Source of the DNA: Bdellovibrionales bacterium
Lineage (GTDB): Bacteria; Bdellovibrionota; Bdellovibrionia; Bdellovibrionales; CAYMLA01
Length of the DNA stretch: 64,000 bases
Reading direction: 5' to 3'
NCBI GenBank assembly: GCA_965217115.1
Contig: OZ244239.1
Span: 1,888,001 to 1,952,000, forward strand
This document shows positions 8,128-37,935 of the stretch, one piece after another. Every line of letters begins with the position of its first letter. Positions within the stretch are counted from its first letter, which is position 1. The position numbers and the translations under genes are program-made. Under the pieces are notes generated by a model. That model was not told where the DNA came from and made no database searches. It was given only the letters and a program-made list of their open reading frames with translations.

Positions 8128-8280
8128 TTTTTTTTCTAGAGTCTCTCCCAAAAGAATCTAGCCCTTTTCTTGCTCAAACATCCGTTTGTCACCTTCCATT
8201 GCAGAGAAATGCAATGGAAGTCGCCAAGCCAAACTCGCCGAAAAGAACTGGATTCTTTTGGGAGAGACTCTAGAAAAAAA
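8128..8280. repeat. Long hairpin element, divergent member of the conserved-core repeat family
   Basis: Arms ttttctagagtctctcccaaaagaatc / gattcttttgggagagactctagaaaa around GCTCAAACA...CCAAACTCGC, with inner hairpin cttccattgca/tgcaatggaag. Confidence 0.85.
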
Positions 8281-8524
8281 GGACGTATTCAATCAATTGA
8301 GTCAATGGATCTATCTCTATGACTGACCTCCATGTATAACAACGCTGTTATCCATGGATCGTTTTAGAAAGAGAGCCCTCAAGATGAGTCTCTTGGGAAC
8401 AGTTCCACTATTTATCACAAAGAACCATACTTTAAGCCAGAAAGTAACCAGCTATTTGAAAGGGTAACCCTCAATATGAGGCAATTCGGCGTCATTATAG
8501 TTTCACGGTGAAAGAATATATTTT

Positions 8525-8552
8525 TAAAGGAATGCCCCCCATATTCCGATGA
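8525..8552 (+). promoter_or_regulatory. Putative sigma28 (FliA) promoter
   Basis: TAAA-N16-TCCGATGA, 31 nt upstream of ORF 8584. Confidence 0.55.
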
Positions 8553-8583
8553 GTCATAGAGCCTTTAAGGGGGGTATTTTAAT

Positions 8584-8871
8584 ATGGTTTTACAGGGAAA
8601 TTTACAGAATATGTTTGATGCTCTCTATCTCTTAGGAGCTATAGACCCCGTGTTGCAAATGGATTGGATGGAGGCTCTTGATGAGCTTGAGGAACAGTAT
8701 GAGCAACAGGCCCATGTGGAGGAAGTTATTACGGTGGTTTCCGATCACAATGGAGATGTCAATGAGTTGGCAGAGTCTTTGAAAAAATTTGACGACAGAA
8801 CTCTGGCTTATCTAGCGATGGAAGTCGCCAGGGAGTTTGCTAATTTCCATACGCGTGAGTATGTGCATTAA
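8584..8871 (+). CDS. Small acidic hypothetical protein
   Basis: Clean 95-aa ORF with purine-rich RBS and promoter-like motif upstream. Confidence 0.7.
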   Translation: MVLQGNLQNMFDALYLLGAIDPVLQMDWMEALDELEEQYEQQAHVEEVITVVSDHNGDVNELAESLKKFDDRTLAYLAMEVAREFANFHTREYVH

Positions 8872-8936
8872 AAGAGAGGATGGCAGCAGGATTTTTTTTT
8901 AATATTAACCAACACCCCATTAAAACTGTGTGAACT

Positions 8937-13718: not shown

Positions 13719-16700
13719 TTATCTATATGCATCTAAATAAGTTTTCAGCTCTTTGGTTGTCTTTCTGCCGTCAATCGCACCAGGAGAGATAGTAGTATGT
13801 AAATTGTTAGCATTAGAGTTCAATAAATATTTAAAGATAATCAATCCATCATTAGGGGCAGAGAGAACTCCATCGCCATCAACATCTAAAATATCTATTG
13901 CAGCATCTAAATAAGCTTTCAATTCTTCGCTTGTCTTTCTGTCGTCAGCCGCATCAGCCCTGATAGTAGTATGTAAATTGTTAGCATTAGGATTCGATAA
14001 ATATTTAAAGATAATCAATCCATCATTAGAGGCAGTGAGAACTCCATTGCCATCAACATCTAAGGAAAAAGTTGGAGCAAATGGTGTAGTGATGTCATTA
14101 AACTGATAACCAGAGTCTGTTGGTGCACCACTGCCGCCATGACTAGAACCACCCCAAGCAGTGATTGAGCCATCAGCTTTTAGAGCGGCAAAGGCAGAGA
14201 CAGTTGAATAAATTTCTACATAATCAGAGTCTGTTGGTGCACCACTGCCGCCATGATCAGAGCCACCCCAAGCAGTGATTGAGCCGTCAGTTTTTAGAGC
14301 GGCAAAGGCAGAGGCCGTTGAATAAACCTTTACATAACCAGAGTCTGTTGGTGAACCACTGCCACCATGACCAGAGCCACCCCAAGCATTGATTGAGCCA
14401 TCAGCTTTTAGAGCGGCAAAGGCAGAGGCCGTTGAATAAACCTTTACATAACCAGAGTCTGTTGGCGCACCACTGCCGCCATGATCAGAGCCACCCCAAG
14501 CGGTGATTGAACCATCAGCTTTTAGAGCGGCAAAGGCAGAGGCCGTTGAATGAACCTTTACATAACCAGTGCCTGTTGGTGCGCCACTGCCGCCATGATC
14601 AGAGCCACCCCAAGCAGTGATTGAGCCATCAGCTTTTAGAGCGGCAAAGGCGTTTTCAGTTGAATAAATATTTATATAACCAGAGTCTACCGGAGCACCA
14701 GTGTCGCCCCCGCCCCAAGCAGTGATTGAACCATCAGCTTTTAGAGCTGCAAAGGCTTTGGCAATTGAATAAATTTTTACATAACCAGAGTCTGTTGGTG
14801 CCTCAGTGCCACTAGCAAAAGATCCGCCCCAAGCAGTGATTGAGCCATCAGCTTTTAAAGCGGCAAAGGCAACATCGTTTGAATAAATTTTTACATAACC
14901 AGAGTCTGTTGGTGCACCACTGCCACCATAATCAGTTTCACCCCAAACAGTGATTGAACCATCAGCTTTTAGAGCTGCAAAGGCTTGGACAGTTGAATAA
15001 ATATTTGCATAACCAGAGTCTGTTGGTGCATTGACACTAGAGTCACCCCAAGCAGTGATTGAGCCATCAGCTTTTAGAGCGGCAAAGGCAGAGGAAGAGG
15101 GATGAACCTTTACATAACCAGAGTCTGTTGGCGCATCATCACTAAATTCACCCCAAGCAGTGATTGAGCCATCAGCTTTTAAGGCAGCAAAGGCAGAACT
15201 AGCAGTATTTGGTGCATTAAAAACACCTCCGTATTGGTTATAGATGGTAGAATAATCAATATAAGAATTAGGACTGTCATTGCTATTGTTTAAATTAGTA
15301 CCAGCATTATATTCTTCTAAATTACTAAAGCCATCACCATCTGAATCGCCATTAGCATCAGAGGCATCTAGCGAGTTTAAACCATTATTTGCTTCAAAAC
15401 TATCAGGAATGCCATCGTTATCATCATCAATATCAATAGCATCAGGTGTGCCGTCGGTGTCGGTATCGATCTCGATAAAATGAGCATCGCAAGATTTATC
15501 ACTGTCCATCACAATAGTTAGTGGGTTATCTGAACTTGATGAACAATCACTCCAATGGGTAAAGGTATAACCATCATTTGCGTTGGCGGTGAGTTGGATC
15601 TGGGTGTTTTCATTATAAGATTGGCTACAATCAGTGCCACAGTCGATGCCAGTAGCTGTAACAATGCCATCGCTTGCTGAGGTGCTTAGAGTCCATTTAG
15701 TGACAGCGACTCTGTGGACTGCTGCTGAAGCTTCAGAACAAGTGCTGATATCATTATTGATACAAGCTTTTAGGGTGTAAGAATAGTTAGTACCGCTACT
15801 CAATCCAGTATGACTATAACTTAGGTTACTGCCCCCATAAATCTGTATGCCATCATTATATAAGAGATAATAAGTTGCGACACTAACGCTTGGCCATGAA
15901 AGGTTGATTTGGTTAGCACTTTGGACTGTGGCACTGGGGGCAGCTGGAGCTACAAGAGCACGATACCCTGAATCAGAATAACTATAATCACCACAGCGGT
16001 CAGTGCCACTTGAGTTTTCGCAAGCCTTTACTTTGTATGAATAAATTATACCTTCTGCTGCTGAGCTGTCATCATAAGGTGAAGATGAAGTGCTTGCAAT
16101 TTGTGAGTAAACCCCTTCTGAACCATTGGAACGATAAACTGTATAACTTGAAGCATTGCTAACATCACTCCAAGAGACTTCCACATAGGAGGTATAGCTG
16201 CCATCTGAGGCACTAACCCCAGATGGAGCTGGGATTGTATTAGTAATATCAGCCCTAAGGGTGTAATCGCCCGTTGTGGAGAGAAAATATCCTTTAACGC
16301 GAATATAATAAGTGCCAGCGCTAAGAGTTTGTCTAATGTTAAAATTTCCATTTATTGTAGATATATTATTATGTTCGGCAATAACATTACCAGAACTGTC
16401 TAATAAATAACCATAGGTGTTTGTAATACCTGTGCTATAAATATCCAAATCACCGCCGCCGACAGGCACGTGAATACTAAAATAATCATCATCACCGTCA
16501 CCTCTAATATTACCACTGACATCGGTATTAAAACTAATAGCAGTGGCAGTGCTGGTGTCGTCTCCATGATCGTCTGTTGAGTTATCAAGACCATATATTG
16601 CCCTAATTGCATTTATATCATCTGTTTGCAGTGTTTTTACACTGTTACTATATGTCGGGTTCATTATTGCAGAATTAGTCTCTTCATGGCCTATCCCAAG

Positions 16701-17171
16701 GGTGTGGCCGACTTCGTGCAAGGCAACGCGTTTAAAATCAATTGGAGAGTTGGTGCTATTGTCGTGAATGCCCCATGTTCGTGATGAATTAAAAACAATA
16801 TAAGCTGAAGCTTTGGTAGTGCCAGCACTCCAACCACTGGCTATTGCAAGTGTAGTATCGCCAAAATCTGTACCGCATATGTCACTGCTAAACCTGACAC
16901 TACTGTATAGATCAAGTATATTAATTCCACAGGGGTCTTTATATGCTGAAATAGGGTTATATTGAAAGTTAGAATTATCACCCCAAGAAGTCATTGCATT
17001 ATTTAGGGCTGATTGGTAATCAGCAGCACTGATATTATCCTCGCTGCCACCAAATCCTATATAAAATTCGACATCATTGCTTGTCCAACTACTTGTTAGC
17101 AACTCATAAGCATTGACTGATACGCCAATGACTAAGACAGCTAAGAAACTTATCTTAGAGATGAGTTTCAT
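13719..17171 (-). CDS. Secreted multidomain matrixin (M10-like) metalloprotease with PPC, FN3, Asp-rich Ca-binding, RCC1-like repeat and duplicated C-terminal EF-hand/dockerin-like domains
   Basis: Signal peptide; HEVGHTLGIGH plus Met-turn AIMNP; DDHGD/GTYYIRV; DTDTDGTPD..DDDNDG; 10 AFAALKADGSITAWG repeats; 2x LDVDGxGVL...NDGLIIFKYL. Confidence 0.88.
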   Translation of the reverse strand: MKLISKISFLAVLVIGVSVNAYELLTSSWTSNDVEFYIGFGGSEDNISAADYQSALNNAMTSWGDNSNFQYNPISAYKDPCGINILDLYSSVRFSSDICGTDFGDTTLAIASGWSAGTTKASAYIVFNSSRTWGIHDNSTNSPIDFKRVALHEVGHTLGIGHEETNSAIMNPTYSNSVKTLQTDDINAIRAIYGLDNSTDDHGDDTSTATAISFNTDVSGNIRGDGDDDYFSIHVPVGGGDLDIYSTGITNTYGYLLDSSGNVIAEHNNISTINGNFNIRQTLSAGTYYIRVKGYFLSTTGDYTLRADITNTIPAPSGVSASDGSYTSYVEVSWSDVSNASSYTVYRSNGSEGVYSQIASTSSSPYDDSSAAEGIIYSYKVKACENSSGTDRCGDYSYSDSGYRALVAPAAPSATVQSANQINLSWPSVSVATYYLLYNDGIQIYGGSNLSYSHTGLSSGTNYSYTLKACINNDISTCSEASAAVHRVAVTKWTLSTSASDGIVTATGIDCGTDCSQSYNENTQIQLTANANDGYTFTHWSDCSSSSDNPLTIVMDSDKSCDAHFIEIDTDTDGTPDAIDIDDDNDGIPDSFEANNGLNSLDASDANGDSDGDGFSNLEEYNAGTNLNNSNDSPNSYIDYSTIYNQYGGVFNAPNTASSAFAALKADGSITAWGEFSDDAPTDSGYVKVHPSSSAFAALKADGSITAWGDSSVNAPTDSGYANIYSTVQAFAALKADGSITVWGETDYGGSGAPTDSGYVKIYSNDVAFAALKADGSITAWGGSFASGTEAPTDSGYVKIYSIAKAFAALKADGSITAWGGGDTGAPVDSGYINIYSTENAFAALKADGSITAWGGSDHGGSGAPTGTGYVKVHSTASAFAALKADGSITAWGGSDHGGSGAPTDSGYVKVYSTASAFAALKADGSINAWGGSGHGGSGSPTDSGYVKVYSTASAFAALKTDGSITAWGGSDHGGSGAPTDSDYVEIYSTVSAFAALKADGSITAWGGSSHGGSGAPTDSGYQFNDITTPFAPTFSLDVDGNGVLTASNDGLIIFKYLSNPNANNLHTTIRADAADDRKTSEELKAYLDAAIDILDVDGDGVLSAPNDGLIIFKYLLNSNANNLHTTISPGAIDGRKTTKELKTYLDAYR
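14105..15205 (-). repeat. Ten intragenic 35-38 aa RCC1-like repeats
   Basis: Recurrent ccccaagcagtgattgagccatcagcttttagagcggcaaaggc. Confidence 0.95.
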
Positions 17172-18021: not shown

Positions 18022-20589
18022 ATGAAAAAAAAATTATTCATTGTTGATGTGAGTTCCTGGTTTTTCCGTGCGTTTTATGCCGTTCGCCCTCTGTCGACAG
18101 CCAGTGGTTTGCCGACAAACGCTGTCTATGGTTATTTGCAAATGGTGTCAAAGCTGATTAAAGAAAAAAATCCAGAGTACATTGCTTTTTGCTATGATCG
18201 CAAAGAGCCCTCTTTTCGTAGGGACATAGACCCTAATTACAAGGCAAATCGGGGTGAGATGCCTGAAGAGCTGGTTCCACAAATGCCCTACATAAAAAAA
18301 GTGGCTCCGCTCATGGGAATTGCGTCCTTTGAAAAAAAAGGTTTTGAGGCGGATGACTTGATAGGCACCCTTTGCCATAGAGCTGAGCAGTGGGGGCTAG
18401 ATGTGGTCATTGCAAGCGGCGACAAGGACTTTGGGCAGTTGATTAATAAAAGTGTAACCATGCTCGATACGATGAAGGGTATTTGTTACGATGAAAAAGG
18501 TGTGCTGGAGAAGTGGGGCATTAGACCTGAACAGTTCATCGATTACTTGGCTCTTGTTGGAGATGCTTCAGATAATATTCCTGGGGTTAGGGGAGTTGGC
18601 CCTAAAGGGGCACAGAAACTAATTGTCGAGTATGAAACACTAGATGGTATCTATAAAAATTTAGATAAAATCAAAAGCCAGAGTGTTAGAGATAAATTGA
18701 GCGAAAACAAAGAGAATGCTTATCTCTCGAAGAAATTAGTGACGATTGTGACAGATATTGAATTGAATGTGGAGCTTGATGATTTAAAGAAGCAACCATT
18801 GGATGAGGATGGGTTGCGCTCTTTTCTAAAAGAGTTGGAATTTGAGAAGTTAGAAAAAAATCTTTTAAATCAGAAGAGTGCTGTCAAAGGGGAGAGTAAA
18901 AAAACTAAGGAGACAGCAGTCGTTAATAAACCCCAAGATAAGATTTCATTGATTGAGAGAAAGGTTAATTTGAAGGAGTTAGAGCGCTTAATTGACGCAA
19001 GAGGTGAGTATTGGGTTTTTAATCAAGAAGAAGATTTTGTCGTCGCTTCTGATAAAGAGGTGTTTTTAATAGAAGAGAACTCTACAGAAGTGAAAGGGTT
19101 TTTATCTACACAGAGCTTTGGCTGGAAGGGTTTTGGTTTAAAAGAATTGTGGACTCGATTGGAAATTAAAAAACCAGTGGCAGCTTGGGACAGTCAAGTG
19201 GCGGCCTATGTTGTGAGAGCTGGAAACGTCGGTGATTTTGCTAAAGTTTTTGAGCAGTACACAGGAGGTATCTTGCCAGACGAACAATCAGAGCAAGAAA
19301 TTGGGGGGAGTTCATTAGTGAATCAAGTGAAGAATCATATTCTTCTACAAAATTGTTTACGTGCAGAATTAAAAAAAGTGGGAGGAGATGAAATATTTCA
19401 GGATATGGAGATGCCTTTGATAGAAATCCTCTACCGTATGGAGCGAGCAGGGGTGTCTCTAGATGTGAAAGATTTGAAGGTTTTTAGTGAAGAGTTGGGA
19501 CAGGAGATCGCACGGTCTCAAAAAAAAATATGGGATATTGCGGGAGAAGAGTTTAATGTGGCAAGCCCTAAACAGTTGGCCGTGGTGTTGTTTGACAAAT
19601 TGGGTTTACCACCGAGTAAAAAAACTAAAACAGGGTATTCAACAAAGACGGAAGTTTTAAATAAATTAGCAAAAGAGCATCCCATCTGCGAAAAAGTTTT
19701 GAGCTTTAGGGAAAACTCAAAACTAAAATCTACTTACGTCGATGCTCTCCCTCAATTGGTGGATGGGAAGACGTTAAGATTACACACGACTTATAATCAG
19801 GCTTTGACGACGACGGGTCGTCTATCGAGCCACAACCCCAATTTGCAGAATATCCCCATCCGAACATCGAAGGGGCATCGAGTGCGTCGATCTTTTGTTG
19901 CGGGGAAGGGTCAGCAATTACTTTCAGTGGATTATAGTCAAATTGAGCTGAGAATTTTAGCCCATATAACGGGTGATAAGGGTTTGATTCAGGCTTTTGA
20001 AAATGACTTGGATATTCATGCGGCAACGGCCAGTGAGGTTTTTTCAGTCTCTCTTGATGGGGTGACACCTGATTTGCGACGTAAGGCCAAAGCCATTAAT
20101 TTTGGTATTGCCTATGGGCAGGGAGCTTTTGGCTTGGCGGAGACCCTGGGGGTTTCCCGTGGGGAGTCTAAAGAAATTATTACGAATTATTTTGAGAAAT
20201 TTTCGGGTGTGTCGACTTACATGACTGATATTGTGGAATCAGCTAAAGAGAGGGGTTTTGTAGAAACCTTGTTGGGTCGTCGTCGTTACATTGATGAGTT
20301 AAAATCCAGTAATGGCATGATCCGTAAGTTTGGTGAGAGGGCGGCAATCAATGCGCCTATCCAGGGAACAGCCAGTGATATTATAAAAAAAGCAATGGTG
20401 GAGTTGTCTGACAAGATTTGTTCTAAAATGATTTTGCAGGTTCATGATGAATTGATTTTTGAAGGTTCGAAGGATGAGCTAAAAAAAGATATTCCTATTA
20501 TTAAAGAGATCATGAGCGGGGCTGTTGATTTGAAGGTTCCTTTGAAGGTTAATGTGGGGGTGGGGGGGGATTGGGCCCAAACCCATTAG
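18022..20589 (+). CDS. polA: DNA polymerase I (start inferred at 18022)
   Basis: 5'-3' exo FRAFYA, EADDLIGTL, GDASDNIPGV; polymerase TGRLSS..PNLQNIP, DYSQIELR, KAINFGIAYG, QVHDEL. Confidence 0.97.
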   Translation: MKKKLFIVDVSSWFFRAFYAVRPLSTASGLPTNAVYGYLQMVSKLIKEKNPEYIAFCYDRKEPSFRRDIDPNYKANRGEMPEELVPQMPYIKKVAPLMGIASFEKKGFEADDLIGTLCHRAEQWGLDVVIASGDKDFGQLINKSVTMLDTMKGICYDEKGVLEKWGIRPEQFIDYLALVGDASDNIPGVRGVGPKGAQKLIVEYETLDGIYKNLDKIKSQSVRDKLSENKENAYLSKKLVTIVTDIELNVELDDLKKQPLDEDGLRSFLKELEFEKLEKNLLNQKSAVKGESKKTKETAVVNKPQDKISLIERKVNLKELERLIDARGEYWVFNQEEDFVVASDKEVFLIEENSTEVKGFLSTQSFGWKGFGLKELWTRLEIKKPVAAWDSQVAAYVVRAGNVGDFAKVFEQYTGGILPDEQSEQEIGGSSLVNQVKNHILLQNCLRAELKKVGGDEIFQDMEMPLIEILYRMERAGVSLDVKDLKVFSEELGQEIARSQKKIWDIAGEEFNVASPKQLAVVLFDKLGLPPSKKTKTGYSTKTEVLNKLAKEHPICEKVLSFRENSKLKSTYVDALPQLVDGKTLRLHTTYNQALTTTGRLSSHNPNLQNIPIRTSKGHRVRRSFVAGKGQQLLSVDYSQIELRILAHITGDKGLIQAFENDLDIHAATASEVFSVSLDGVTPDLRRKAKAINFGIAYGQGAFGLAETLGVSRGESKEIITNYFEKFSGVSTYMTDIVESAKERGFVETLLGRRRYIDELKSSNGMIRKFGERAAINAPIQGTASDIIKKAMVELSDKICSKMILQVHDELIFEGSKDELKKDIPIIKEIMSGAVDLKVPLKVNVGVGGDWAQTH

Positions 20590-20600
20590 CTTGATTTTCG

Positions 20601-20736
20601 CGAGTAAGAACTTCTTAGGAAGGTCTTCACCGTAAAGCTCAGACATGCGGTTGGCAGCACGGCTCACTGAAAAGTGAGCAGCGCACCAATCCGAACTCGC
20701 TTTACGGTAAAGACCTTCCTAAGAAGTTCTTACTCG
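20601..20736. repeat. Conserved-core hairpin element, copy A (family 1)
   Basis: 36-nt arms with one mismatch around GCTCAGACA...GCACCAATCCGAACTCGC; inner hairpin gctcact-gaaa-agtgagc. Confidence 0.92.
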
Positions 20737-20916
20737 AAACCTGCGGCTGGGCTGGGAACAACGGAGGTTGGAGGCAGTGGGCTTTGGGTTTAGACTCGCT
20801 TTACGGTGAATATCTGCCTAAGAAACTCTTATTGAAACCTGCGGCTGGGCTGGGAACAACGGGGGGGGAGTGGTCACGGAGGTTGAGGAGCTTTATTGAA
20901 ATCTGTGATTGAGTCC

Positions 20917-20976
20917 TATGGTTTTGGTTATTATTCCGAGATAGATGGAAGTGAGTTTGGAGATGGCATTAACTGA
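20917..20976 (+). pseudogene. 3'-end relic of a paralog of the 21358/22260 genes
   Basis: YGFGYYSE...GIN* resembles GGFGSHPE and VGPGYHPV...VIN*; downstream DNA is nearly identical to that after 22883. Confidence 0.55.
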
Positions 20977-20991
20977 GTTCTTGGTTTTGTA

Positions 20992-21124
20992 AATAAGGCG
21001 TTTCTTAGGCAGATCTTCACCGTAAAGCTCAGACATTCGGTTGGCAGCACTGCTCACTGAAAAGTGAGCAGTGCACCAATCCGAACTCGCTTTACGGTGA
21101 AGATCTGCCTAAGAAACTCTTATT
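20992..21124. repeat. Conserved-core hairpin element, copy B
   Basis: gtttcttaggcagatcttcaccgtaaa / tttacggtgaagatctgcctaagaaac around the core. Confidence 0.92.
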
Positions 21125-21164
21125 GAAACCTGCGATTGGACTGGGAACAGCGGAGATTGGAGGA

Positions 21165-21232
21165 CAACGGAAGGGGCAACGGAAAAGGGGCGACGGAAGG
21201 GGCGACGGAAGGGGTGACGGAAGGGGTGAAGG
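21165..21232. repeat. G-rich ~12-bp microrepeat (GACGGAAGGGGY)
   Basis: Direct reading. Confidence 0.75.
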
Positions 21233-21357
21233 AGTGGGCTTATAGGTCTAGGACTTATGCTTGAAACTGCTACTATGTCCAGTTTGGACTCTTTTTGAGT
21301 TTTCTTTTCAAAAGGTTAAGTTATGATTTATGTGAAGATAATGCCTATTGGAGGTCG

Positions 21358-22110
21358 ATGATGTTAAAGATTTTTTGTACAGTGTTTATATTTTGTTCCT
21401 CACTTGCAGCTGAAAACAGGTTGGGTATTGGTGGGTCCAAGGGTGTTGATGGGTCCCCGGGTATTGGTGGGTCCCCGGGTATTGGTGGGTCCACGGGTGC
21501 TACATTCCCGGGTAGTGTATTCCCGAGTGGTGCATTTGGGGGTAGTCTATTCGGGGGTAGTCTATTCGGGGGTAGTCTATTCCCGAGTGGTGCATTCGGG
21601 GGTGGTCTATTCATTGCTGGTATGGTCAAGGGATTTTTAGCATCAAACCTTGAGACCTGTTCAGAGAGGCTTATGGATATAAATGGTATGGATGCAGATT
21701 TAAGAATAGCTTATAAGCCTCATACCTACAATCCAGTTCCCATTTTCAAAAAGGTCGCAAATGGTATTGTGACAGTGACAACTCCATCCGGAACAATGAC
21801 AATTACGGGACGAAACTGTCAAACGGCAAAGGAGCCAACAAGTATAAAAGTGATTTCAGATTTGATTTCTGAATTACCTGAAAAAGTTGGTAAACGTCTT
21901 AAAGAGATGATAGCTAGGGATGAACCTTACAAAAAGTTACTAGAAGTATCTAAAGGATATTTAGGATTTTTAAAGGACGAATGCTCGATGACGGGTGTAG
22001 AAGAGATAGATGCCTCTGCTAGGAGAGCTGTAGAAATAATTTCTTCCCGTGGTGGTTTTGGTTCTCATCCTGAATATCATAAACAAGAAAAGGGTGTTAA
22101 CGATGGGTAA
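21358..22110 (+). CDS. Secreted hypothetical protein with Gly-rich tandem repeats, paralog 1
   Basis: GGAGG RBS before ATG 21358; signal peptide MMLKIFCTVFIFCSSLAA; GIGGSP and FGGSL repeats; IVTVTTPSGT..ITGR.C. Confidence 0.8.
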   Translation: MMLKIFCTVFIFCSSLAAENRLGIGGSKGVDGSPGIGGSPGIGGSTGATFPGSVFPSGAFGGSLFGGSLFGGSLFPSGAFGGGLFIAGMVKGFLASNLETCSERLMDINGMDADLRIAYKPHTYNPVPIFKKVANGIVTVTTPSGTMTITGRNCQTAKEPTSIKVISDLISELPEKVGKRLKEMIARDEPYKKLLEVSKGYLGFLKDECSMTGVEEIDASARRAVEIISSRGGFGSHPEYHKQEKGVNDG

Positions 22111-22259
22111 GGGAAGGGACAACGGAGGTTGAAGGCAGTGGGCTTTGGGTCTAGGGCTTATGGTTGAAGCTGTTATTATGTCCAGTCTTGACTCTTTTTG
22201 AGTTTTTTTTAAAAAGGTTAAGTTATAATTTATGTGAAGATAATGCCTATTGGAGGTCG

Positions 22260-22883
22260 ATGATGTTAAAGGTTTTTTGTACAGTGTTTATATTTTGTTC
22301 CGCACTTGTAGCTGAAAATAATTTGAGTGAACATGGTGGATACGCCGGTGGTGGTGGATTCACGGAAGGTGGATTCACGAAGGGTGCAGGTCAAAAAATA
22401 TCTCTTAGCGATAAAAAGGCTTTAACAGACAACCTTGTAAACTGTATAGGGAGTCTGAAAAAGATCAGTGATATGGGTGATGTCGAGTTAGAAATAGATC
22501 CTAGCTCCAAAGAAGGGGTATGGCCCGTTTTCACAAAGATCCAAAATGATATTGTGACAGTGACAACTCCAAGCGGAACAACGAAAATTACGGGACGAAA
22601 ATGTCAATCGTCAAAGAAGCCAACAAGTATGAAAATGATTTCAGATTTAATTTCTGAATCACCTGAAAATCTTGATCAACATCTTAAGGGAAGTAAGGTA
22701 AGCTCTAACAAAAAAATATCGGGAAAGACTGGAGAATATTTAAAAATTCTAAAGGAACAATGCTCGAAGACGAGTATAAAAGATATAAATAGATCTGCTA
22801 GGATAGCTGTGGAAGAAATTTCTTCCCGTGTTGGTCCTGGTTATCATCCCGTACATAAGAAAAATAGAAGTGTCATTAACTGA
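22260..22883 (+). CDS. Secreted hypothetical protein, paralog 2
   Basis: Near-identical upstream region and signal peptide; shared IVTVTTPSGT, PTS.K.ISDLISE and Cys pattern. Confidence 0.8.
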   Translation: MMLKVFCTVFIFCSALVAENNLSEHGGYAGGGGFTEGGFTKGAGQKISLSDKKALTDNLVNCIGSLKKISDMGDVELEIDPSSKEGVWPVFTKIQNDIVTVTTPSGTTKITGRKCQSSKKPTSMKMISDLISESPENLDQHLKGSKVSSNKKISGKTGEYLKILKEQCSKTSIKDINRSARIAVEEISSRVGPGYHPVHKKNRSVIN

Positions 22884-22898
22884 GTTCTTGGTTTTGTA

Positions 22899-23031
22899 AA
22901 TAAGGCGTTTCTTAGGCAGATCTTCACCGTAAAGCTCAGACATTCGGTTGGCAGCACGGCTCACTGAAAAGTGAGCAGTGCACCAATCCGAACTCGCTTT
23001 ACGGTGAAGATCTGCCTAAGAAACTCTTATT
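22899..23031. repeat. Conserved-core hairpin element, copy C; half copies follow near 23088 and 23184
   Basis: Nearly identical to copy B. Confidence 0.92.
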
Positions 23032-23239
23032 GAAACCTGCGATTGGACTGGGAACAGCGGAGGTTGGAGGCAGTGGGCTTTGGGTTTGACTCGCTTTAGG
23101 GTGAAGAATTGGCTAAGAGACTCCTATGAAATCTGCGATTGGACTGGGGACAGCGGAAGGTGGAGGCAGTGGGCTTTGGGTTTGACTCGTTTTAGGGTGA
23201 AGAATTGGCTAAGAGACTGTTACCTAGTTCATTCCAAGT

Positions 23240-23920
23240 TTAGTATGGATCAATAAGTACAAAGCCATTTTCCGTGAGTAAAATGTTATCTGGTTTAAAC
23301 ATAATATCTCCCTGAAACTTCTTGACGGTAGTCGCCGTGGAAATAATCTGATACATTCCAGTGGGTACAAGCTTTAAATCTTTATAAGTTTTATATTCTG
23401 ATATGCTAATATCATTCCCATAAGATCTTAAAAAGACAGCAACCTCCTCAACAAGCCTATTATATTTAGAGATGGACTCCGCATCAAGGTGGCCATCGAG
23501 CCATAGTTTCTCTAAGTCTGTACCACGGTGGTATTCGAGATCAACTATAAGGCGCTTCATATGGGGGAACCTTGGATCAGTGACTTGTTTTGTTTGAATT
23601 ACTTTTACAACATTCAAGCCTTCTATGCCTGAAGCCCTAAACATATCGAGTATCTTTAAGTCTTCCAGAGAACGTGCCTTCTGCGGCCATTGGAATTTTT
23701 TAATGTCTGTACTATATATCTTTCTTGCAAAAGGCCCATTGGGGCCATCAACTAAGTATACTGAGGCTCCCCAACCTTTACCTAACAAAACCGCGGACTC
23801 TCCATCTAAAACAGTTAACTTTCCCCCATGAACAAAGAGGGAAGAAAACAAAGATTCACAAGTATTTGCAAAAGAGAATAATGGACAGAAGAAAAAAAAG
23901 ATAAGAAGTTGTTTTTTCAT
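23240..23920 (-). CDS. Secreted protein-kinase-like protein, truncated or atypical
   Basis: Signal peptide; LLGKGWGASVY, FARK, MFKPDNILL, terminal LIDPY. Confidence 0.65.
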   Translation of the reverse strand: MKKQLLIFFFFCPLFSFANTCESLFSSLFVHGGKLTVLDGESAVLLGKGWGASVYLVDGPNGPFARKIYSTDIKKFQWPQKARSLEDLKILDMFRASGIEGLNVVKVIQTKQVTDPRFPHMKRLIVDLEYHRGTDLEKLWLDGHLDAESISKYNRLVEEVAVFLRSYGNDISISEYKTYKDLKLVPTGMYQIISTATTVKKFQGDIMFKPDNILLTENGFVLIDPY

Positions 23921-24279
23921 TTATAAACCTACCTTAAGCAAGGTTTCTGTCAGGGTTATCTCTCTATTACGATTCACTAAGTAAAACTTCTGTTTAAGTA
24001 ACCAACACTTTGACAGTTTTGTGAAATTTTTAAAGTAATAGTCTGGTATCGTTCTATTTTCTTGGGAGACCCATTCTCCTGAATCAGATTGAGACCGTTA
24101 GTTTCAAGGGTCTAGAGTACATATTCTATGCCATCGAGAAAACAGTTCAAATATCAGTTTATCAGTGCTTGAGGCTTTTTGAGATGTCTACCCCCTTGCG
24201 TAGATTGTCAGTTTAGAGTTTTAAAAAGAGACTTCTCCTGCGGTAGAGTTTAGTTGCACGGCTTAACTACTGCCACAGG

Positions 24280-24360
24280 GCACCAATCCGAACTCGCTTT
24301 ACGGTGAAGACCTGCCTAAGAGACTCTTGTGAAATCTGCGATTGGGCTGAGGACAGTGGA
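24280..24360. repeat. Partial (right-half) hairpin element with conserved tail
   Basis: gcaccaatccgaactcgctttacggtgaagacctgcctaag...gaaatctgcgattgg. Confidence 0.85.
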
Positions 24361-24499
24361 GATTGAAGGACAACGGAGGTTGAGGGGTGCTATTGAAACT
24401 TGCGATTGGCTTGGGAAGAGCGGAGGTTGAGGGGCAACGGAGGTTGAAGGAGTGGGCTTTGGGTTTTTTGGGACTTATGGTTGAGACTGTTATTATAGT

Positions 24500-24777: not shown

Positions 24778-25533
24778 TCAATGAATTGCTTTTTTTTGTT
24801 GATTTACGCCTTGTGAATGTCCACTCTTCTGTTTGCCTAAACCCAGTGAAACTTGGCACTTATTGCTTAAAACAACACTCTTGTTATTAATCAAACAGCC
24901 ACGGTCATATGTTTTTGAGCAATATTTTTTCATCTCTAATTTACAGTTTTCATGCTCCGATAGGTCAAATTCGTATCTTTCATTAAGGTTTATACACTGA
25001 GCCTTAACAGATGCCTCAATTTTATATGTTTTTTTAACTTTAGGGTCACGTAATGCTCGACTTAACATCAAAGTATTATTTTTTTTGTCATAGATAAAAA
25101 AACCAGACCCACCATTATGTCCCCCTGAAACTTTAATTGTTTGATCAGTCTCTTTAGCTGGAGTCATTGGCCAGTTTCCATAGTCAAGGGCCGCCCCTAC
25201 TCCGACATACAGCTTCCCTTTGTCGCCTTCGACATAACCAAGCAGTTCTATTTCCTTATTCTCATTACTAGATTGATTGCCTGTTTCTGCTCGAAAAATA
25301 CAGACGTCTATCTTCTTGGGGCTTCGAGCGGCAGTTGGATTAACCTTATTAACCTTTAAAACATTACAGGCTGCTACGATATGGGTTGTTCTATAAAAGT
25401 CATTGTGTCTCTTATTGGGGCGAAATTTTTTGCAGCCTTTAATTAACTGTTTCTTCTCTGTGTCCTTTGCAATCGAATGAAAAGGGAGACTAAAAATTAA
25501 AAGCAAACATGATAATCTTGTAAAAATAGACAT
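24778..25533 (-). CDS. Secreted Cys-rich basic hypothetical protein
   Basis: Signal peptide MSIFTRLSCLLLIFSLPFHSIA; AAGGAG RBS. Confidence 0.8.
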   Translation of the reverse strand: MSIFTRLSCLLLIFSLPFHSIAKDTEKKQLIKGCKKFRPNKRHNDFYRTTHIVAACNVLKVNKVNPTAARSPKKIDVCIFRAETGNQSSNENKEIELLGYVEGDKGKLYVGVGAALDYGNWPMTPAKETDQTIKVSGGHNGGSGFFIYDKKNNTLMLSRALRDPKVKKTYKIEASVKAQCINLNERYEFDLSEHENCKLEMKKYCSKTYDRGCLINNKSVVLSNKCQVSLGLGKQKSGHSQGVNQQKKAIH

Positions 25534-25561
25534 AATCAAAAACTCCTTAGGTTATAATCCC

Positions 25562-25588: not shown

Positions 25589-25591
25589 ATG

Positions 25592-25765
25592 TGGGAACAG
25601 CGGAGGTTGGAGGCAGTGAGCTTTGGGTTTGACTCGCTTTACGGTGAAGACCTGCCTAAGAAACTCTTATTGAAACCTGCGATTGGACTGGGAACAGCGG
25701 AGGTTGAAGGGCAGCGGAGGTTGAAGGGCAGCGGAGGTTGAAGGGCAGTGGAGGTTGGGGGGCAA
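25592..25765. repeat. Half hairpin element plus 17-bp G-rich tandem repeat (AGCGGAGGTTGAAGGGC, about x4)
   Basis: gactcgctttacggtgaagacctgcctaagaaac plus tail, then the tandem units. Confidence 0.85.
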
Positions 25766-29008: not shown

Positions 29009-29032
29009 ACCGTATGTACTGACTATTTTAGA

Positions 29033-34353: not shown

Positions 34354-35408
34354 TGGCAAATATGGCCCAATCCATTCGCATGGCTTTGCATAAAGCTGAG
34401 AGAGATCTGCAGTTGAAAGATATTTTTGGTCAAGATGTTGGAGAGCCGTTGGGCGGAGTCTTTACGGCCACTCAGGGTTTAGAAACCTCATGGAATACCC
34501 CACTTGATGAGAGGGGGATCATTGGCGCTGCCATTGGTATCGCGATGACAGGGGATCGTTGTGTTGCGGAGATTCAGTTCGTTGATTATATTTTTAATAC
34601 GATTGATTTGCTTAAATTAGCGGGAAATACTTTATGGTCCTCTAATGGTCAGTTCGCTCTACCCTTGACTGTAATGACTCCTGTAGGGGCGGGAATCTTT
34701 GGTTCTATTTATCACAGTCACAGTTTTGATGCCTGGGCGACGAGATTGCCTGGCTGGAAGGTGGTGATGCCCTCGAATCCAATGGATGCCTATGGCTTGC
34801 TTTTATCTGCCATAGAAGATCCAAACCCTGTGTTGTATTTGAAGCCTAAGGCTTTAATGAGGGTGCGTGGAGATGAATTACTTCCCGGTGAGCCAGAGGA
34901 TTTGAAAAAGTTAAAAGCTATGATTGATGCTCCTATTGGCGAGCGTTCTGGGTGGAAGGCTAAATGGCCAGAGATCAAGGATTTTCGAACACCTATTGGT
35001 GAGGGAAAGATAGTCCGTCAGGGGGAAAGTGCAACAGTTGTGACCTATGGTCGTCATGTTTTAATCTGCAAGGAAGCAGCTGATGAGTTGGCGCAAGAAG
35101 GGATGTCAGTGGAAGTCATTGATTTACGTTCGCTCTATCCTTACGATTGGCAATTGATAAAAAAATCAGTGACCAAGACAGGGCGTGTGCTTTTTGTGAA
35201 CGAAGACACTGAAGTGACTAATTTTGGTGAACATCTGTCCTATCGTGTGACCCAAGATTTATTCTATCAGTTAATGGCACGACCGAAAGTCTTAGCCGCT
35301 AAGAATATACCGGGTATTGGATTGCACCCTCACTTAGAAAATGCAACGATACCGCAAAAAAGTGATGTGATCAGAGAATTAAAAGATTTATTAGCGGAAG
35401 TTCCGTGA
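34353..35408 (+). CDS. 2-oxoacid dehydrogenase E1 beta subunit
   Basis: GGVFTATQGL, NTPLDE, AEIQFVDY, EVIDLRSL. Confidence 0.92.
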   Translation: MANMAQSIRMALHKAERDLQLKDIFGQDVGEPLGGVFTATQGLETSWNTPLDERGIIGAAIGIAMTGDRCVAEIQFVDYIFNTIDLLKLAGNTLWSSNGQFALPLTVMTPVGAGIFGSIYHSHSFDAWATRLPGWKVVMPSNPMDAYGLLLSAIEDPNPVLYLKPKALMRVRGDELLPGEPEDLKKLKAMIDAPIGERSGWKAKWPEIKDFRTPIGEGKIVRQGESATVVTYGRHVLICKEAADELAQEGMSVEVIDLRSLYPYDWQLIKKSVTKTGRVLFVNEDTEVTNFGEHLSYRVTQDLFYQLMARPKVLAAKNIPGIGLHPHLENATIPQKSDVIRELKDLLAEVP

Positions 35409-35444
35409 GTTGTTCTGGAGAATAATAAAGATGAGAAAGAAGAG

Positions 35445-36272
35445 ATGAGAAAGAAGAAAAGAGAAAGCAATGACAAATTGGAGCAGGGCTCTTTTGATAA
35501 GTATTATTATTATCAAAAATCAGTTCAGGGGCCTGAGGGTGATGTCATTTTTTTAAAGGATACTTATAAAGAATTGAGAAAAAAAAGCCCAAGAACAATG
35601 TGTGAGGATTTTTGTGGAACTTTTTCAATTTCCTGTGAGTGGGTGAAGTTAGGCTCTGAGTTTAAGGCTGTCTCAGTGGATATTGATTCTGATCCTATTG
35701 AATATGGCCGACAAAATTACCTGTCTCTTTTGAATGAAGATGAGAAGAGTCGAATTCAGGTTTTTGTATCCAGTGTTTTAGACAAAGCTTTACCTAAGGT
35801 GGATATCGTTTCGGCGATGAACTTCTCATATTTTCTTTTTAAGAAGAGATCGGAGTTAAAAGCTTATTTTGCTAGCGCTTATAGTAGAATTAATAATGAT
35901 GGTATTTTTCTTGTTGATTGTTTTGGCGGGAGCCAATGTCAGCAGTCTATCGAAGAGGAGACGGAGCATAAAGAGGAGAAATTCAGCTATTTTTGGGATC
36001 AAGATAGTTTTAATCCCGTAACCAATGAAGCTCAGTTTTACATCCATTTTAAACGCAAGGGTGAGAAAAAAAGAGAAAAAGTCTTTTCTTATGATTGGCG
36101 TATGTGGAGTATTTCAGAAATCCGTGAGGTCATGGAGGAAGTGGGTTTTAGTAAAACCTATGTTTATTGGGAAGGCACAACCAAAGATGGCGATGGGGAT
36201 GGCAAGTTTGTACAAACTCAAGTAGGGGAGGAGTGTGAGGCTTGGATTTCCTACATTGTCGCCAAAAAATGA
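35445..36272 (+). CDS. Class I SAM-dependent methyltransferase
   Basis: EDFCGT motif I-like, VDID, AMNFSY. Confidence 0.75.
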   Translation: MRKKKRESNDKLEQGSFDKYYYYQKSVQGPEGDVIFLKDTYKELRKKSPRTMCEDFCGTFSISCEWVKLGSEFKAVSVDIDSDPIEYGRQNYLSLLNEDEKSRIQVFVSSVLDKALPKVDIVSAMNFSYFLFKKRSELKAYFASAYSRINNDGIFLVDCFGGSQCQQSIEEETEHKEEKFSYFWDQDSFNPVTNEAQFYIHFKRKGEKKREKVFSYDWRMWSISEIREVMEEVGFSKTYVYWEGTTKDGDGDGKFVQTQVGEECEAWISYIVAKK

Positions 36273-37935
36273 TCTGAGATTTTGGCAAATGACGGCGTTT
36301 TTTAATGGGGCTTTATTATTAGGCTCAGACATTCGTTCGGCAGCGATGCTCGCAGGGAGAGCATGCGCACCAATCCGAACTCGCCGAATAACAAAACCCC
36401 ATTAAAAAACTTTCACTTGAAATCTAAGATTGACTGGGAACAGTGGGGTTTAAGAATAGAAAAAGGGACTTTAGTGGTCTGAGACTTGGACAAATGATCT
36501 GAGGTTTGGGCAAATGACGGCGTTTTTTAATGGGGCTTTATTATTAGGCTCAGACATTCGTTCGGCAGCGATGCTCGCAGGGCGAGCGTCGCACCAATCC
36601 GAACTCGCCTAATAACAAAACCCCATTAAAAAACTTTTATTTGAAATCTAAGATTGACTGGGAACAGTGGGGTTTAAGAACAAAAAAAAGGGACTTTAAT
36701 AATTCGAACTCATCTAATGATCTGAGATTTGGGCAAATGACGGCGTTTTTTAATGGGGCTTTATTATTAGGCTCAGACATTCGTTCGGCAGCGATGCTCG
36801 CGCTGCGAGCATGCGCACCAATCCGAACTCGCCGAATAACAAAACCCCATTAAAAAACTTTCACTTGAAATCTAAGATTGACTGGGAACAGTGGGATTTA
36901 AGAACAAAAAAAAGGGACTTTAATAATTCGAACTCATCTAATGATCTGAGATTTGGGGAAATGATGCGTTTTTTAATGCCCTCTCTTATTAAGCCCAAAT
37001 AAATGTTTAGGCGCACCGCCTACGCCGTTTTCAAAGGAGAGTTTTTTTAGATGGGATTTTATTATTAGGCTCAGACATTCGTTTGGCAGCGCTGCTCGCG
37101 CTGCGAGCGTCGCACCAATCCGAACTCGCCTAATAACAAAACCCCATTAAAAAACTTTTATTTGAAATCTAAGATTGACTGGGAACAGTGGGGTTTAAGA
37201 ACAAAAAAAAGGGACTTTAATAATTCGAACTCATCTAATGATCTGAGATTTGGGGAAATGATGCGTTTTTTAATGCCCTCTCTTATTAAGCCCAAATAAA
37301 TGTTTAGGCGCACCGCCTACGCCGTTTTCAAAGGAGAGTTTTTTTAGATGGGATTTTATTATTAGGCTCAGACATTCGTTTGGTAGCGATGCTCGCGCTG
37401 CGAGCATTGCACCAATCCGAACTCGCCGAATAACAAAACCCCATTAAAAAACTTTCACTTGAAATCTAAGATTGACTGGGGACAGCGGGGTTTAAGAATA
37501 GAAAAAGGGACTTTAATGGTCTGAGATTTGGGGAAATGATGCGTTTTTTTAATGCCCTCTCTTATTAATCCCAAATAAATGTTTAGGCGCACCGCCTACG
37601 CCGTTTTCAAAGGAGAGTTTTTTTAGATGGGGCTTTATTATTAAGCGAGTTCGGATTGGTGCGTATGCTCGCCCTGCGAGCATCGCTGCCGAACGAATGT
37701 CTGAGCGTAATAATGAAGGTCCATCTAAAAAAGCGGTTCATTTGCCAGAAACAAGCATGTTTGGGTGGACCGCCTACGCCGTTTTCAAAGGAGAGTTTTT
37801 TTAGATGGGGCTTTATTATTAAGCGAGTTCGGATTGGTGCGTATGCTCGCCCTGCGAGCATCGCTGCCGAACGAATGTGTGAGCGTAATAATGAAGGTCC
37901 ATCTAAAAAAACGGGTCATTGGCCAGAAACAAGCT
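36268..37935. repeat. Array of seven conserved-core hairpin elements (five forward, two inverted) between convergent genes
   Basis: Forward cores at 36323, 36548, 36771, 37069, 37366; reverse cores at 37645 and 37823; linkers are themselves repeated. Confidence 0.95.

Follow-up and report, generated by a model that had tools for sequence, protein, structure and literature searches.

Palindromic repeats with a conserved asymmetric core, resembling the REP/REPIN and Correia class, in the order Bdellovibrionales

The hairpins dispersed through the stretch of Bdellovibrionales DNA analysed here (64,000 nt, referred to as the window) are units of one non-coding repeat family. Each unit is a single hairpin of 150-200 nt, centred on a core that is asymmetric and consists of two parts, 5'-(G)CTCAGACAT.CG...(variable inner hairpin)...CCGAACTCG-3'. 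The core sequence is constant across families of the order, with the stems below and above it free to vary if paired, and the hairpin base, lying beyond the limits set in the initial annotation, is also conserved (GATTT-GGG-CAAAG pairs with CTTTG-AAATC). The best reading is a palindromic repeat that depends on its structure, falls in the REP/REPIN/Correia class and is so far undescribed, an apparently new form of a well-known kind of bacterial repeat. We give an even chance to the proposal that these non-coding palindromes, dependent on structure, make up one family spanning the lineage and of the same class as REP/REPIN, ERIC and Correia.

Covariance model R1 identified 108 matches in the 2.17-Mb source genome. 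Sixty-one have variable stems (type A) and about 40 are near-identical to one another and resemble the copy at 8128 of the window (type B), occupying approximately 39 and 36 intergenic regions, respectively; the family thus multiplies inside genomes. R1 matches were found in 20 of 151 genomes of the same order, representing eight of the 13 sampled families (f1, f4, f5, f7, f9, f10, f11, f12), and in none of 127 genomes drawn from a further 20 families of the phylum. The named matches were mostly to Bdellovibrionales MAGs and, among the genomes scanned, the repeat has so far been found only in relatives of the predatory Bdellovibrio. The distribution is patchy, with some genomes carrying 14 to 29 or more scored copies and sister genomes none, and no copy follows polA in relatives whose polA is 50-63% identical. 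No phage, plasmid or viral matches to the repeat were found. The conservation across the order, the MITE around the 8128 copy and the fixed polarity at stop codons had been missed by the initial annotation.

The 18-mer GCACCAATCCGAACTCGC occurs exactly 11 times in the window (nine on the + strand, two on the - strand), versus 0.04 occurrences expected from shuffles. Ten of these belong to full copies and the remaining one (24280) to a partial copy. At least 11 full copies had been claimed previously, and the 18-mer scan together with R1 yields the 11 listed below, in addition to incomplete ones, of which one has lost its 5' half and four consist of the 3' half alone (ACTCGC, right arm and tail, at 20794, 23089, 23185 and 25632). 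Positions of full copies are those of R1 matches, taken as genome coordinate minus 1888000.

R1 match starts of the 11 full copies: 8160, 20625, 21015, 22922, 36311, 36536, 36759, 37057 and 37354 (+ strand); 37633 and 37811 (- strand)
8117..8430, + strand: type B copy; core hairpin (R1 match 8160-8249) inside a MITE, with the right terminal inverted repeat ending near 8427
20593..20764, + strand: type A copy A; base GATTTTCGCGAG, left arm, core (R1 20625-20712), right arm and tail ..GGCTGGGAACAACGG
20794..20862, + strand: 3'-half copy; ACTCGC, right arm and tail
20981..21153, + strand: type A copy B; R1 match 21015-21102
22888..23060, + strand: type A copy C; R1 match 22922-23009, immediately 3' of ORF 22164..22883
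23089..23219, + strand: two 3'-half copies (23089-23156 and 23185-23219) making up a 96-nt tandem array
24280..24440, + strand: 5'-truncated copy; first bases exactly GCACCAATCC, then right core, right arm and tails, without the left core
25590..25757, + strand: tail, 3'-half copy (25632-25702) and 3.7 copies of the G-rich 17-nt tandem repeat CAGCGGAGGTTGAAGGG
36273..37560, + strand: five-copy type A array; R1 matches 36311-36396, 36536-36620, 36759-36844, 37057-37141 and 37354-37438
37600..37912, - strand: two inverted type A copies; R1 matches 37633-37718 and 37811-37896

The 8128 copy, singled out earlier as the divergent one, is too diverged to contain the 18-mer and was recovered by R1 at 8160-8249; it belongs to the separate near-identical subfamily of about 40 copies. 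Its left inverted repeat is absent. The compensatory pair described between copies A and B is present as written (ttaggAagGtct/agaCctTcctaa versus ttaggCagAtct/agaTctGcctaa), and the common tail (GAAAYCTGCG.TTGACTGGGAACAGCGG) was found at both the 20-25 kb and the 36-37 kb loci.

Folding of two window segments gave -104.3 kcal/mol (z = -10.1 versus chance) for 20570-20780 and -58.1 kcal/mol (z = -3.7) for 36270-36460. Pairing and covariation within the source genome were counted on alignment A1, consisting of 25 non-redundant copies, in which 90.5% of cells are paired, compared with 73.0% in shuffles and 36-45% when partners were slid. Both sides have changed in 28 of 30 outer-stem pairs, and the covariation score was reached by none of 500 shuffles. 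For 35 copies from 19 other genomes, whose alignment was fitted to the model, 87.8% of cells are paired (61.7% in shuffles), with changes on both sides in 32 of 33 pairs. Double changes between genomes extend to the core helices, where reading of the alignment shows, for example, TTGG/CCAA replaced by TCGG/CCGA, TGGG/CCCA or CAAG/CTTG. The earlier proposal of stem variation that preserves structure around a conserved recognition-like core is thus upheld within the genome and across genomes, the covariance-model check having revealed strong stem covariation in both. This covariation is not by itself proof of selection on an RNA, since arm-to-arm copying in a DNA palindrome also yields paired double changes. 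The comparison with Rfam, proposed at the same time, left the family without a match to any of its models: the whole 64,000-nt window gave zero matches at gathering score, and the best hits of a permissive scan of 20550-21250 were microRNA hairpin models (33 bits versus a gathering score of 80, on both strands).

The two types differ in their ends. Type B elements are bounded by GGTTCTTTATGACAAACAATAGTGGAGCC and GGTTCTTTGTGATAAATAGTGGAACT, terminal inverted repeats of elements of 210-520 bp, and target duplications of 7-10 bp flank at least eight of the 19 complete elements read (among them AGATTAT, ATTTAAC, CTTGTAG, TCTATGAGA and CTTAAAAAG). The MITE features of terminal inverted repeats, target duplication and approximately 40 near-identical dispersed copies are found in type B only, where the core rides passively in a DDE-type MITE; the matching transposase is absent from the genome. 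Type A possesses a short, conserved inverted base, GATTT(GGG)CAAAG ... CTTTGAAATC, with termini TTGATTTGGGCAAAG and TTGACTGGGAACAG that are alike as direct repeats. Inspection of the flanks of the genome copies did not reveal a clear target duplication for type A, nor was an autonomous partner found in the genome. As the core occurs both with MITE ends (type B) and without them (type A), it is not simply a transposase binding site. Correia/NEMIS of Neisseria and ERIC/IRU of the enterobacteria are MITEs that form long hairpins. The family resembles both in being intergenic, non-coding, non-autonomous, 100-500 bp in size and folded end to end, with no known sequence relation to either. Type B shares with MITEs true terminal inverted repeats and target-site duplications, whereas in type A it is the centre and a short base that are conserved, the long stems varying from locus to locus.

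Copies lodge with fixed polarity directly at the stop codon of a co-oriented gene. At about 19 loci of the source genome the stop of a co-oriented ORF is followed by the first copy 0-26 nt on (counted to 30 nt before the left core), and the one case of a stop on the opposite side belongs to a spurious ORF within an array. In the window, copy A starts 4 nt past the polA stop codon (TAG, 20587-20589), the five-copy array begins at the TGA of ORF 35445..36272, the last inverted copy (37811-37896) adjoins the stop codon of minus-strand pyrE (37916..38437), and the CCTGATG of the type B element contains that of ORF 7155..8120. The TGA within the terminal TTGATTTGGGC motif itself serves as the stop at several loci. 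In other genomes a co-oriented stop lies within 15 nt of the hairpin start in eight of 31 copies, a convergent stop at the hairpin end in two of 31, and genes so placed include serS, atpE and uppP. Among type A regions, those between convergent genes are over-represented: 16 are convergent, 18 tandem and 5 divergent, where the background counts are 264, 913 and 277.

Polar placement at the stops of housekeeping genes in several genomes could indicate a cis role at transcript ends. The element would then be a cis-acting RNA, whose long hairpin with its conserved internal loop would serve to terminate or insulate transcription, to stabilise 3' ends or as a site of processing. It would be transcribed either along with the adjacent gene or antisense to it, the core would bind a conserved RNA-binding protein or nuclease, and the repeat would form a domesticated or modular 'portable gene end'. 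We regard this as a possible but rather unlikely explanation. It draws on the fixed polarity a few nt from co-oriented stops (polA, pyrE, serS, atpE and uppP included) and on the convergent enrichment; orientation to transcription is nonetheless not fixed, tandem gene contexts holding 17 type A copies opposite to the genes and 7 co-oriented, versus 7 and 16 for type B. Tandem arrays of 3-7 copies without an intervening gene also speak against it, as do copy numbers from 0 to 29 or more among related genomes and positions that are not conserved.

The strand-specific signals bear on this explanation and on that of a palindromic repeat. With RNA energy rules applied, 51 of 60 copies of the source genome and 27 of 30 elsewhere fold better as the reverse strand, a point in favour of the RNA explanation; much of this difference in folding energy is due to the common core, which counts against an RNA role. 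Forward-strand mismatches in the outer stem favour A.C over G.T, a signal on the side of the palindromic-repeat reading: 52 versus 10 in the source genome and 32 versus 13 in other genomes, where 14 copies have more A.C, two have more G.T and 14 show equal numbers. The asymmetry between strands is less marked than it first appears, which counts against that reading. In the source genome the mismatches are concentrated at stem positions 8-10, common to related subfamilies, and once the core is removed the reverse strand is the more stable one in just 37 of 58 copies (13 of 21 subfamilies) under RNA rules, with a split of 30 to 27 under DNA rules. Downstream of the source-genome copies the forward strand shows a skew of +0.34, positive in 52 of 62 copies, so that a reverse-strand RNA would have, 5' of the hairpin, a repeat tract rich in C and poor in G, a feature in keeping with the RNA explanation; the corresponding G-rich tail is not seen in other genomes, where the skew is positive downstream in 16 of 29 copies and upstream in 21 of 29. 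No T-run follows the hairpin or core in the source genome's copies, which therefore lack the U-tract that directly follows the GC-rich stem of an intrinsic terminator, a further point against. In other genomes, reading of the alignment shows at least four T right after the core and a matching A-run before it in approximately 15 of 26 copies, an arrangement reminiscent of an intrinsic terminator that works in both directions; next to the T-tract the core is closed by no more than 2-3 base pairs.

Type A expands by local tandem or segmental duplication, carrying with it a few dozen bases of the adjacent gene end. Copies B and C have a common upstream gene-end sequence, the ~45 nt upstream of copy B being a repeat of the end of ORF 22164..22883, and tandem periods of 96, 178, 224 and 297 nt occur in the window. 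Truncated units within arrays and the hybrid copy 529681 likewise point to local duplication. Arrays lie at about 20 or more separate loci; many are gene-free, and many copies are single. Other type A arrays bracket small orphan genes, with which copies alternate at 20.6-25.8 kb of the window and at 427-430k, 474-483k, 527-534k, 913-920k and 1814-1822k of the genome.

The search for a mobilising enzyme returned no match to PF01797, PF07282, PF01548, PF01610 or PF01609 in the source genome, nor any multi-copy IS; the genome holds one truncated resolvase and a type VI retron. Three PF00589 matches were identified, two Xer-sized and Xer-like and one a 367-aa phage-type integrase with an excisionase, located far from every array. 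The best integron-integrase score was 46 bits against a cut-off of 265. Neither a RAYT, an integron integrase nor any other tested transposase is present or linked in this genome, and the check for a linked RAYT, which the initial annotation had suggested, found none in it. Y1 genes are carried by 117 of 151 genomes of the order, unrelated to presence of the element: the element-rich genomes G000, G087, G089 and G142 are not among their bearers, and R1 found no element within ~2 kb at any of 22 Y1 loci (15 genomes).

The label REP-like accordingly stands as a class and fails as membership, with no Y1/RAYT in the genome and none of the 22 Y1 loci having the element. REP and REPIN sequences are described, in the passages cited, as high-copy intergenic hairpins clustered at gene ends (PMC3337134, PMC3116915, PMC3733652), a REP being a palindrome of 20-40 bp, one end of which bears a GTAG or CGTC tag (PMC3733652). 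The present family is likewise intergenic, multi-copy, hairpin-forming and clustered, is over-represented at the 3' ends of genes and where genes converge, and keeps a conserved sequence within its structure; recognition as folded single strands, put forward for REPs in those passages, is proposed here too. Unlike a REP, the unit is a 150-200 nt hairpin with an asymmetric centre, and its core is common to families of the order, not tied to the RAYT of one species. No GTAG or CGTC tag occupies a conserved position in alignments A1-A3; what is conserved is (G)CTCAGACAT.CG and CCGAACTCG.

Alternation with orphan genes is also what would be expected of a hairpin-type recombination site like attC, whose core is cut and rejoined by a site-specific recombinase, the arrays then being cassette arrays with orphan genes inserted between the copies. 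Sites of this kind, such as the Vibrio cholerae repeats, are imperfect palindromes of ~60-140 nt in which structure outweighs sequence and bulges set strand choice. The asymmetric unpaired bases of the core are reminiscent of those bulges. Arms common to the copies of one array recall attC homogeneity in sedentary integrons, truncations recur at two points (before GCACC and before ACTCGC), and hybrid arms occur in copy 529681, drawn from two different subfamilies, and in the G005 array, where the right arm of copy b matches the left arm of copy d. We consider this explanation very unlikely: the integron integrase is absent and the only non-Xer tyrosine recombinase is the distant phage-type one, the arrays are dispersed over many loci instead of lying beside one integrase, many arrays lack genes, many copies are single, most copies have matched arms, which in-core crossovers between subfamilies would not be expected to leave, and the conserved sequence is central in the hairpin, whereas that of attC lies at the base.

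Returning to a palindromic repeat of the REP class, the lopsided core would serve as a handle on one folded single strand, read by a protein acting in trans, and stem pairing would be maintained by selection for folding mixed with templated correction from arm to arm. This protein would be neither a RAYT nor an integron integrase, nor a member of any transposase family tested here. Purely selfish DNA would be an unusual explanation for a core kept in eight of 13 sampled families without a travelling transposase; a host function, or a host partner that is itself conserved, would account for it equally well or better. More speculatively, and in our estimation improbable, the internal loop, lopsided and invariant (CUCAGACAU / GAACUCG or, on the complementary strand, CGAGUUC / AUGUCUGAG), may be the functional element of a structured nucleic-acid module that is new and conserved across Bdellovibrionales, either a gene-end RNA motif docking a conserved protein or the site of an undescribed hairpin-specific DNA enzyme. 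The CGAGUUC / AUGUCUGAG loop could form tandem G.A pairs beside a bulge. If the former were true, the family would be a portable, polar 'gene-end' signal; if the latter, precise placement of copies at stops and cassette assembly would proceed without RAYT or integron integrase.

REPs were long seen as oddities until the RAYT transposase and effects on mRNA ends were found. The family described here bears the hallmarks of the REP class without the known machinery. With R1, annotators can label or mask over 100 loci per genome; at some of them spurious ORFs are now called. The repeats lie at the seams of small gene islands made up of orphans, which often look secreted, and the identity of the core reader would reveal either a new form of hairpin-DNA mobilisation or a new gene-end RNA signal.

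The hairpin family proposed in the initial annotation is real: the 18-mer of its right core occurs exactly 11 times in the window, against 0.04 occurrences expected by chance. Reading of the sequence bore out the layout of its copies, with three at 20.6-23.0 kb (copies A, B and C, at 20593..20764, 20981..21153 and 22888..23060), seven at 36.3-37.9 kb and a diverged one at 8.1 kb. The group of seven is a tandem and inverted array with periods of 224, 297 and 178 nt (Tandem Repeats Finder). The compensatory change at two positions between copies A and B was found exactly as quoted, and two hairpin regions of the window fold far more strongly than their shuffles (z = -10.1 and z = -3.7). No Rfam family reached its gathering score anywhere in the window, and a permissive scan of 20550-21250 returned just generic microRNA-hairpin models, far under threshold. 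Overlooked at first were four "3'-half" units (ACTCGC, right arm and tail) at 20794, 23089, 23185 and 25632 and, at 24280, a further copy whose start coincides with that of the right core.

The anatomy of the unit was derived from an alignment of all copies in the source genome (G000; a single contig of 2,170,531 bp, 39.6% GC, in which the window occupies positions 1888001-1952000). From 5' to 3' it consists of the following parts:

Base of the unit: (T)TGATTTGGGCAAAG, conserved
Left arm: variable, about 30 nt
Left core: GCTCAGACAT(T/G)CG(T/G)TTGGCAGC
Inner hairpin: usually GCGCTCGC-loop-GCGAGC; in some copies (e.g. at 427601) a nested palindrome makes it longer
Right core: GCACCAA(T/G)CCGAACTCGC
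Right arm: between the right core and CTTTGAAATC
CTTTGAAATC: partner of the conserved base, with GGG staying bulged
Tail: TGCG.TTGACTGGGAACA(G/A)CGG, often with G-rich tandem repeats of the GGGAACAGCGG type next to it

Pairing between the left and right cores is only partial: unpaired are an asymmetric internal loop that is conserved (UCAGACA versus ACUC), a bulge of 1-2 bases and a small upper loop. Across genomes (G)CTCAGACAT.CG ... CCGAACTCG, comprising the lower loop with its closing pairs, is invariant. A Rho-loading tract was rejected as a general feature because the G-rich tail is peculiar to G000.

Both arms of the hairpin covary. Among 25 non-redundant copies of G000, standard pairs fill 90.5% of pair cells, compared with 73.0% in shuffles and 36-45% when partners are slid; in the outer stem both sides change in 28 of 30 pairs, and the observed score was reached by none of 500 shuffles. 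A covariance model (R1; 85 positions, 33 pairs) was built from 33 copies of G000 and three other genomes. When 35 matches from 19 other genomes were fitted to R1, in itself a bias towards the structure, 87.8% of cells were paired versus 61.7% after shuffling, with double changes in 32 of 33 pairs. The core helices also vary by double changes between genomes, TTGG/CCAA being replaced by TCGG/CCGA, TGGG/CCCA or CAAG/CTTG. A small ORF in the core (reverse strand, ATG TCT GAG) was discarded, as it is not found in every genome (G007, G020 and G121 have CAG for CAT) and is at odds with the covariation of both arms.

Matches to R1 were found in 20 of the 151 genomes sampled from the order, G000 included, and in eight of the 13 sampled families (f1, f4, f5, f7, f9, f10, f11 and f12); many of these genomes carry from 7 to at least 29 scored copies, and complete genomes such as G005, G021, G074 and G085 are among the carriers. 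Elsewhere in the phylum, 127 genomes representing 20 further families gave no match. When 185,579 species genomes were scanned for the exact pattern, at least 126 loci were found; among the 80 matches listed, 70 lie in records titled Bdellovibrionales, Bdellovibrionaceae, Pseudobdellovibrionaceae or Oligoflexia, and the other ten are scattered single hits compatible with chance (by rough estimate, a few dozen for the pattern). Phage and plasmid collections gave no blastn match, and three pattern hits in IMG/VR were dismissed as chance (best model score 12.4 bits, E = 0.29). Positions are not retained: R1 had no hit past polA at eight loci of relatives whose polA is 41-63% identical (five at 50-63%), and synteny around the gene is lost there. 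Such patchy, multi-copy and positionally unstable occurrence is expected of a proliferating element. The core, even so, is conserved across families.

Within G000, R1 gave 108 matches at E <= 0.01, which fall into two main types. Type A comprises 61 matches (78-101 bits) with variable stems in 21 stem clusters; type B comprises 40 (42-56 bits), among them the copy at 8128 of the window, that are near-identical throughout, stems included. The remainder are three intermediates and four weak or broken copies. Type B hairpins are enclosed by a larger element with inverted repeats GGTTCTTTATGACAAACAATAGTGGAGCC and GGTTCTTTGTGATAAATAGTGGAACT, spaced 210-520 bp apart and flanked by direct duplications of 7-10 bp (e.g. 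AGATTAT, ATTTAAC, CTTGTAG, TCTATGAGA and CTTAAAAAG). Judged by these inverted-repeat ends and duplications, type B rides in a classical MITE, of the kind mobilised by a DDE-type transposase. Both its end sequence and its duplications of 8 bp resemble those of the ISL3 family, yet PF01610 is unmatched in G000. Since the hairpin module is found in type B within the MITE and in type A free of MITE ends, its core is not simply a transposase-binding end.

No autonomous type B element was found in G000. The sole long segment bounded by its terminal inverted repeats (G000 195659-200197, L186) was rejected as a candidate because it holds cargo genes without a transposase. Possibly a composite mobile unit flanked by MITEs, this 4.5-kb segment has one left and one right MITE end, each with a hairpin, around orphan genes and genes for a Spondin_N domain protein and an ODP-family metallo-beta-lactamase-fold protein. 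In assembled contigs of four runs, k-mer depth over window 23864-24431 exceeds that of the flanks by a factor of roughly 2-6, and one loose end there runs into the type B right inverted repeat. On this evidence a piece of another dispersed repeat lies here, probably from the variable portion of the type B MITE.

The family is placed at gene ends with a marked polarity. At about 19 loci of G000 the first copy begins 0-26 nt past the stop of a co-oriented ORF, the distance being taken to a point 30 nt before the left core, at or a few nucleotides before the conserved base; the reverse arrangement was seen once, with a spurious ORF within an array. The TGA of a terminal TTGATTTGGGC motif serves as this stop codon at several loci, and at others the stop lies 1-6 nt upstream. 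The C-terminus of polA is normal, and the element starts 4 nt beyond that gene. In other genomes of the order, the hairpin start coincides with the stop codons of serS and of atpE (G005) or lies 5 nt beyond uppP (G085). Across 31 copies in 19 genomes, with ORFs defined crudely, as stop-to-stop frames of 100 codons or more, a co-oriented stop falls within 15 nt of the hairpin start in eight cases and a convergent stop at the hairpin end in two. Intergenic regions with type A copies lie between convergent genes more often than the background does (16 of 39 regions, against 264 of 1454). At a locus of G021 (L042), a copy lies directly past the 3' end of a tRNA gene (...GGTTCAATTCC...CCACCA, then TTTTT), so this placement reaches RNA genes too.

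Which strand is folded was approached through the imperfections of the outer stem. On the strand as written, A.C mismatches outnumber G.T by 52 to 10 in G000 and by 32 to 13 in other genomes, and read on the complementary strand they would be G.T or G.U wobbles. By RNA energy rules the complementary strand is the more stable in 51 of 60 copies of G000 and in 27 of 30 elsewhere; with the core swapped for a neutral loop it is ahead by only 37 to 21 (13 to 8 by subfamily), and under DNA rules the strands split 30 to 27. The signal in G000 lies mainly at stem positions 8-10, which are common to related subfamilies. Taken together, this is a moderate hint that one strand would be the folded, read strand. 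The hint applies equally to RNA and to single-stranded DNA, and it would be inverted if repair of the folded strand were biased against G.T.

A cis-acting RNA module at gene ends would accord with the placement past stop codons and with the strand preference under RNA rules, and is a possible explanation, less probable than the reading favoured below. Copy orientation has no strict relation to transcription in the tandem gene contexts of G000, where type A is opposite to the genes in 17 cases and co-oriented in 7, and type B in 7 and 16, respectively. A strict replication bias is likewise absent, as a hand count in G000 gave 38 copies in leading-strand orientation and 24 in the opposite one.

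Type A copies are grouped in about 20 loci of G000, with arms that are uniform within an array and differ from locus to locus; copy 529681 has arms drawn from two different subfamilies. Insertion of the core in pre-existing local palindromes, or copying of the arms from the gene flank, is not supported in G000: arms occur there only with the family, and an empty arm-to-arm hairpin was not found. Small genes without a family match alternate with the copies in several arrays; those in the window are:

21295-22110, small gene among the copies
22164-22883, small gene among the copies
23240-23920, small gene among the copies
24778-25539, small gene among the copies

About 45 nt upstream are common to copies B and C, and in copy C they form the end of ORF 22164-22883. 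That the hairpin is a recombination site bounding cassettes of this kind is improbable: integron integrases are absent from the three tyrosine recombinases of G000 (two Xer-sized, one phage-type with an excisionase). Across genomes no protein family recurs beside the copies, the only shared ones being response regulators and ABC ATPases. Contigs of four DNA runs from one sample end at the hairpin repeats; their joints 21136>23228 and 24369>25783/4 have just 29-30 nt on the shorter side and so may be artefacts of the repeat graph instead of variants lacking the cassettes.

Further features of the window were noted. A G-rich 12-nt microsatellite (ACGGAAGGGGCG, 4.8 copies) lies 3' of copy B at 21167-21233, and 18-nt and 15/30-nt coding repeats at 21423-21612, inside the orphan ORF 21295-22110, encode a Gly-rich repeat protein. 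A 1150-aa ORF at 13719-17171 (-) has about ten tandem 114-nt (38-aa) units at 14106-15197, with a higher-order period of 333 nt, and only weak matches, to pilus-like and myxosortase-dependent protein families. The first half of an 804-aa ORF at 32-2446 (+) matches NADPH-dependent HMG-CoA reductase and the remainder is unassigned, so its product may be a fusion protein.

A partner enzyme was sought in G000, where Y1/RAYT, TnpB, IS110, ISL3 and DDE_Tnp_1 had no matches, self-blastn showed no multi-copy IS, and the resolvase is truncated. The earlier proposal of a REP-like element holds as to the class of palindromic repeat; a RAYT link was rejected in view of the absence of Y1 from G000, of the distribution of Y1-like genes (present in 117 of 151 genomes of the order irrespective of the hairpin family, and unmatched in the carriers G000, G087, G089 and G142) and of the lack of a copy within about 2 kb of any of 22 Y1 loci. 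Most genomes of the order carry several weakly scoring Y1_Tnp-like ORFs, about 170-260 aa long and as many as 27 scored in one genome, a large and apparently uncharacterised expansion unrelated to the hairpin family. An origin by reverse transcription was considered because of 5'-truncated units and simple-repeat tails. It was rejected, since R1 has no hit near the only reverse transcriptase of G000 and truncations in the type A arrays are two-sided (about 12 units retain the 3' part and about 4 the 5' part). That enzyme (315 aa; PADLOC RT_VI, E = 1e-71) belongs to a type VI retron at G000 1867.1-1870.7k (L190), some 19 kb ahead of the window, with an HTH_VI partner upstream (E = 7e-28).

REP/REPIN, ERIC, Correia and attC-like repeats are of the same class, and the family differs in the defining enzyme or tag from REP/REPIN and attC, and probably also from ERIC and Correia. 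A full-text search found no literature tying Bdellovibrio to REP, REPIN, RAYT or MITE terms, and "Bdellovibrio" does not occur in the main text of a MITE survey of 183,232 genomes (PMC11602168). The family is best filed as undescribed, order-wide, structure-dependent palindromic repeats of a familiar class. The reading we favour, with as much reserve as confidence, is selfish or duplicative DNA, the asymmetric core of which would be read on one folded strand by a putative partner. The interest of the family lies in a core that is conserved across families without a known enzyme, and in its exact, polar placement at stop codons.
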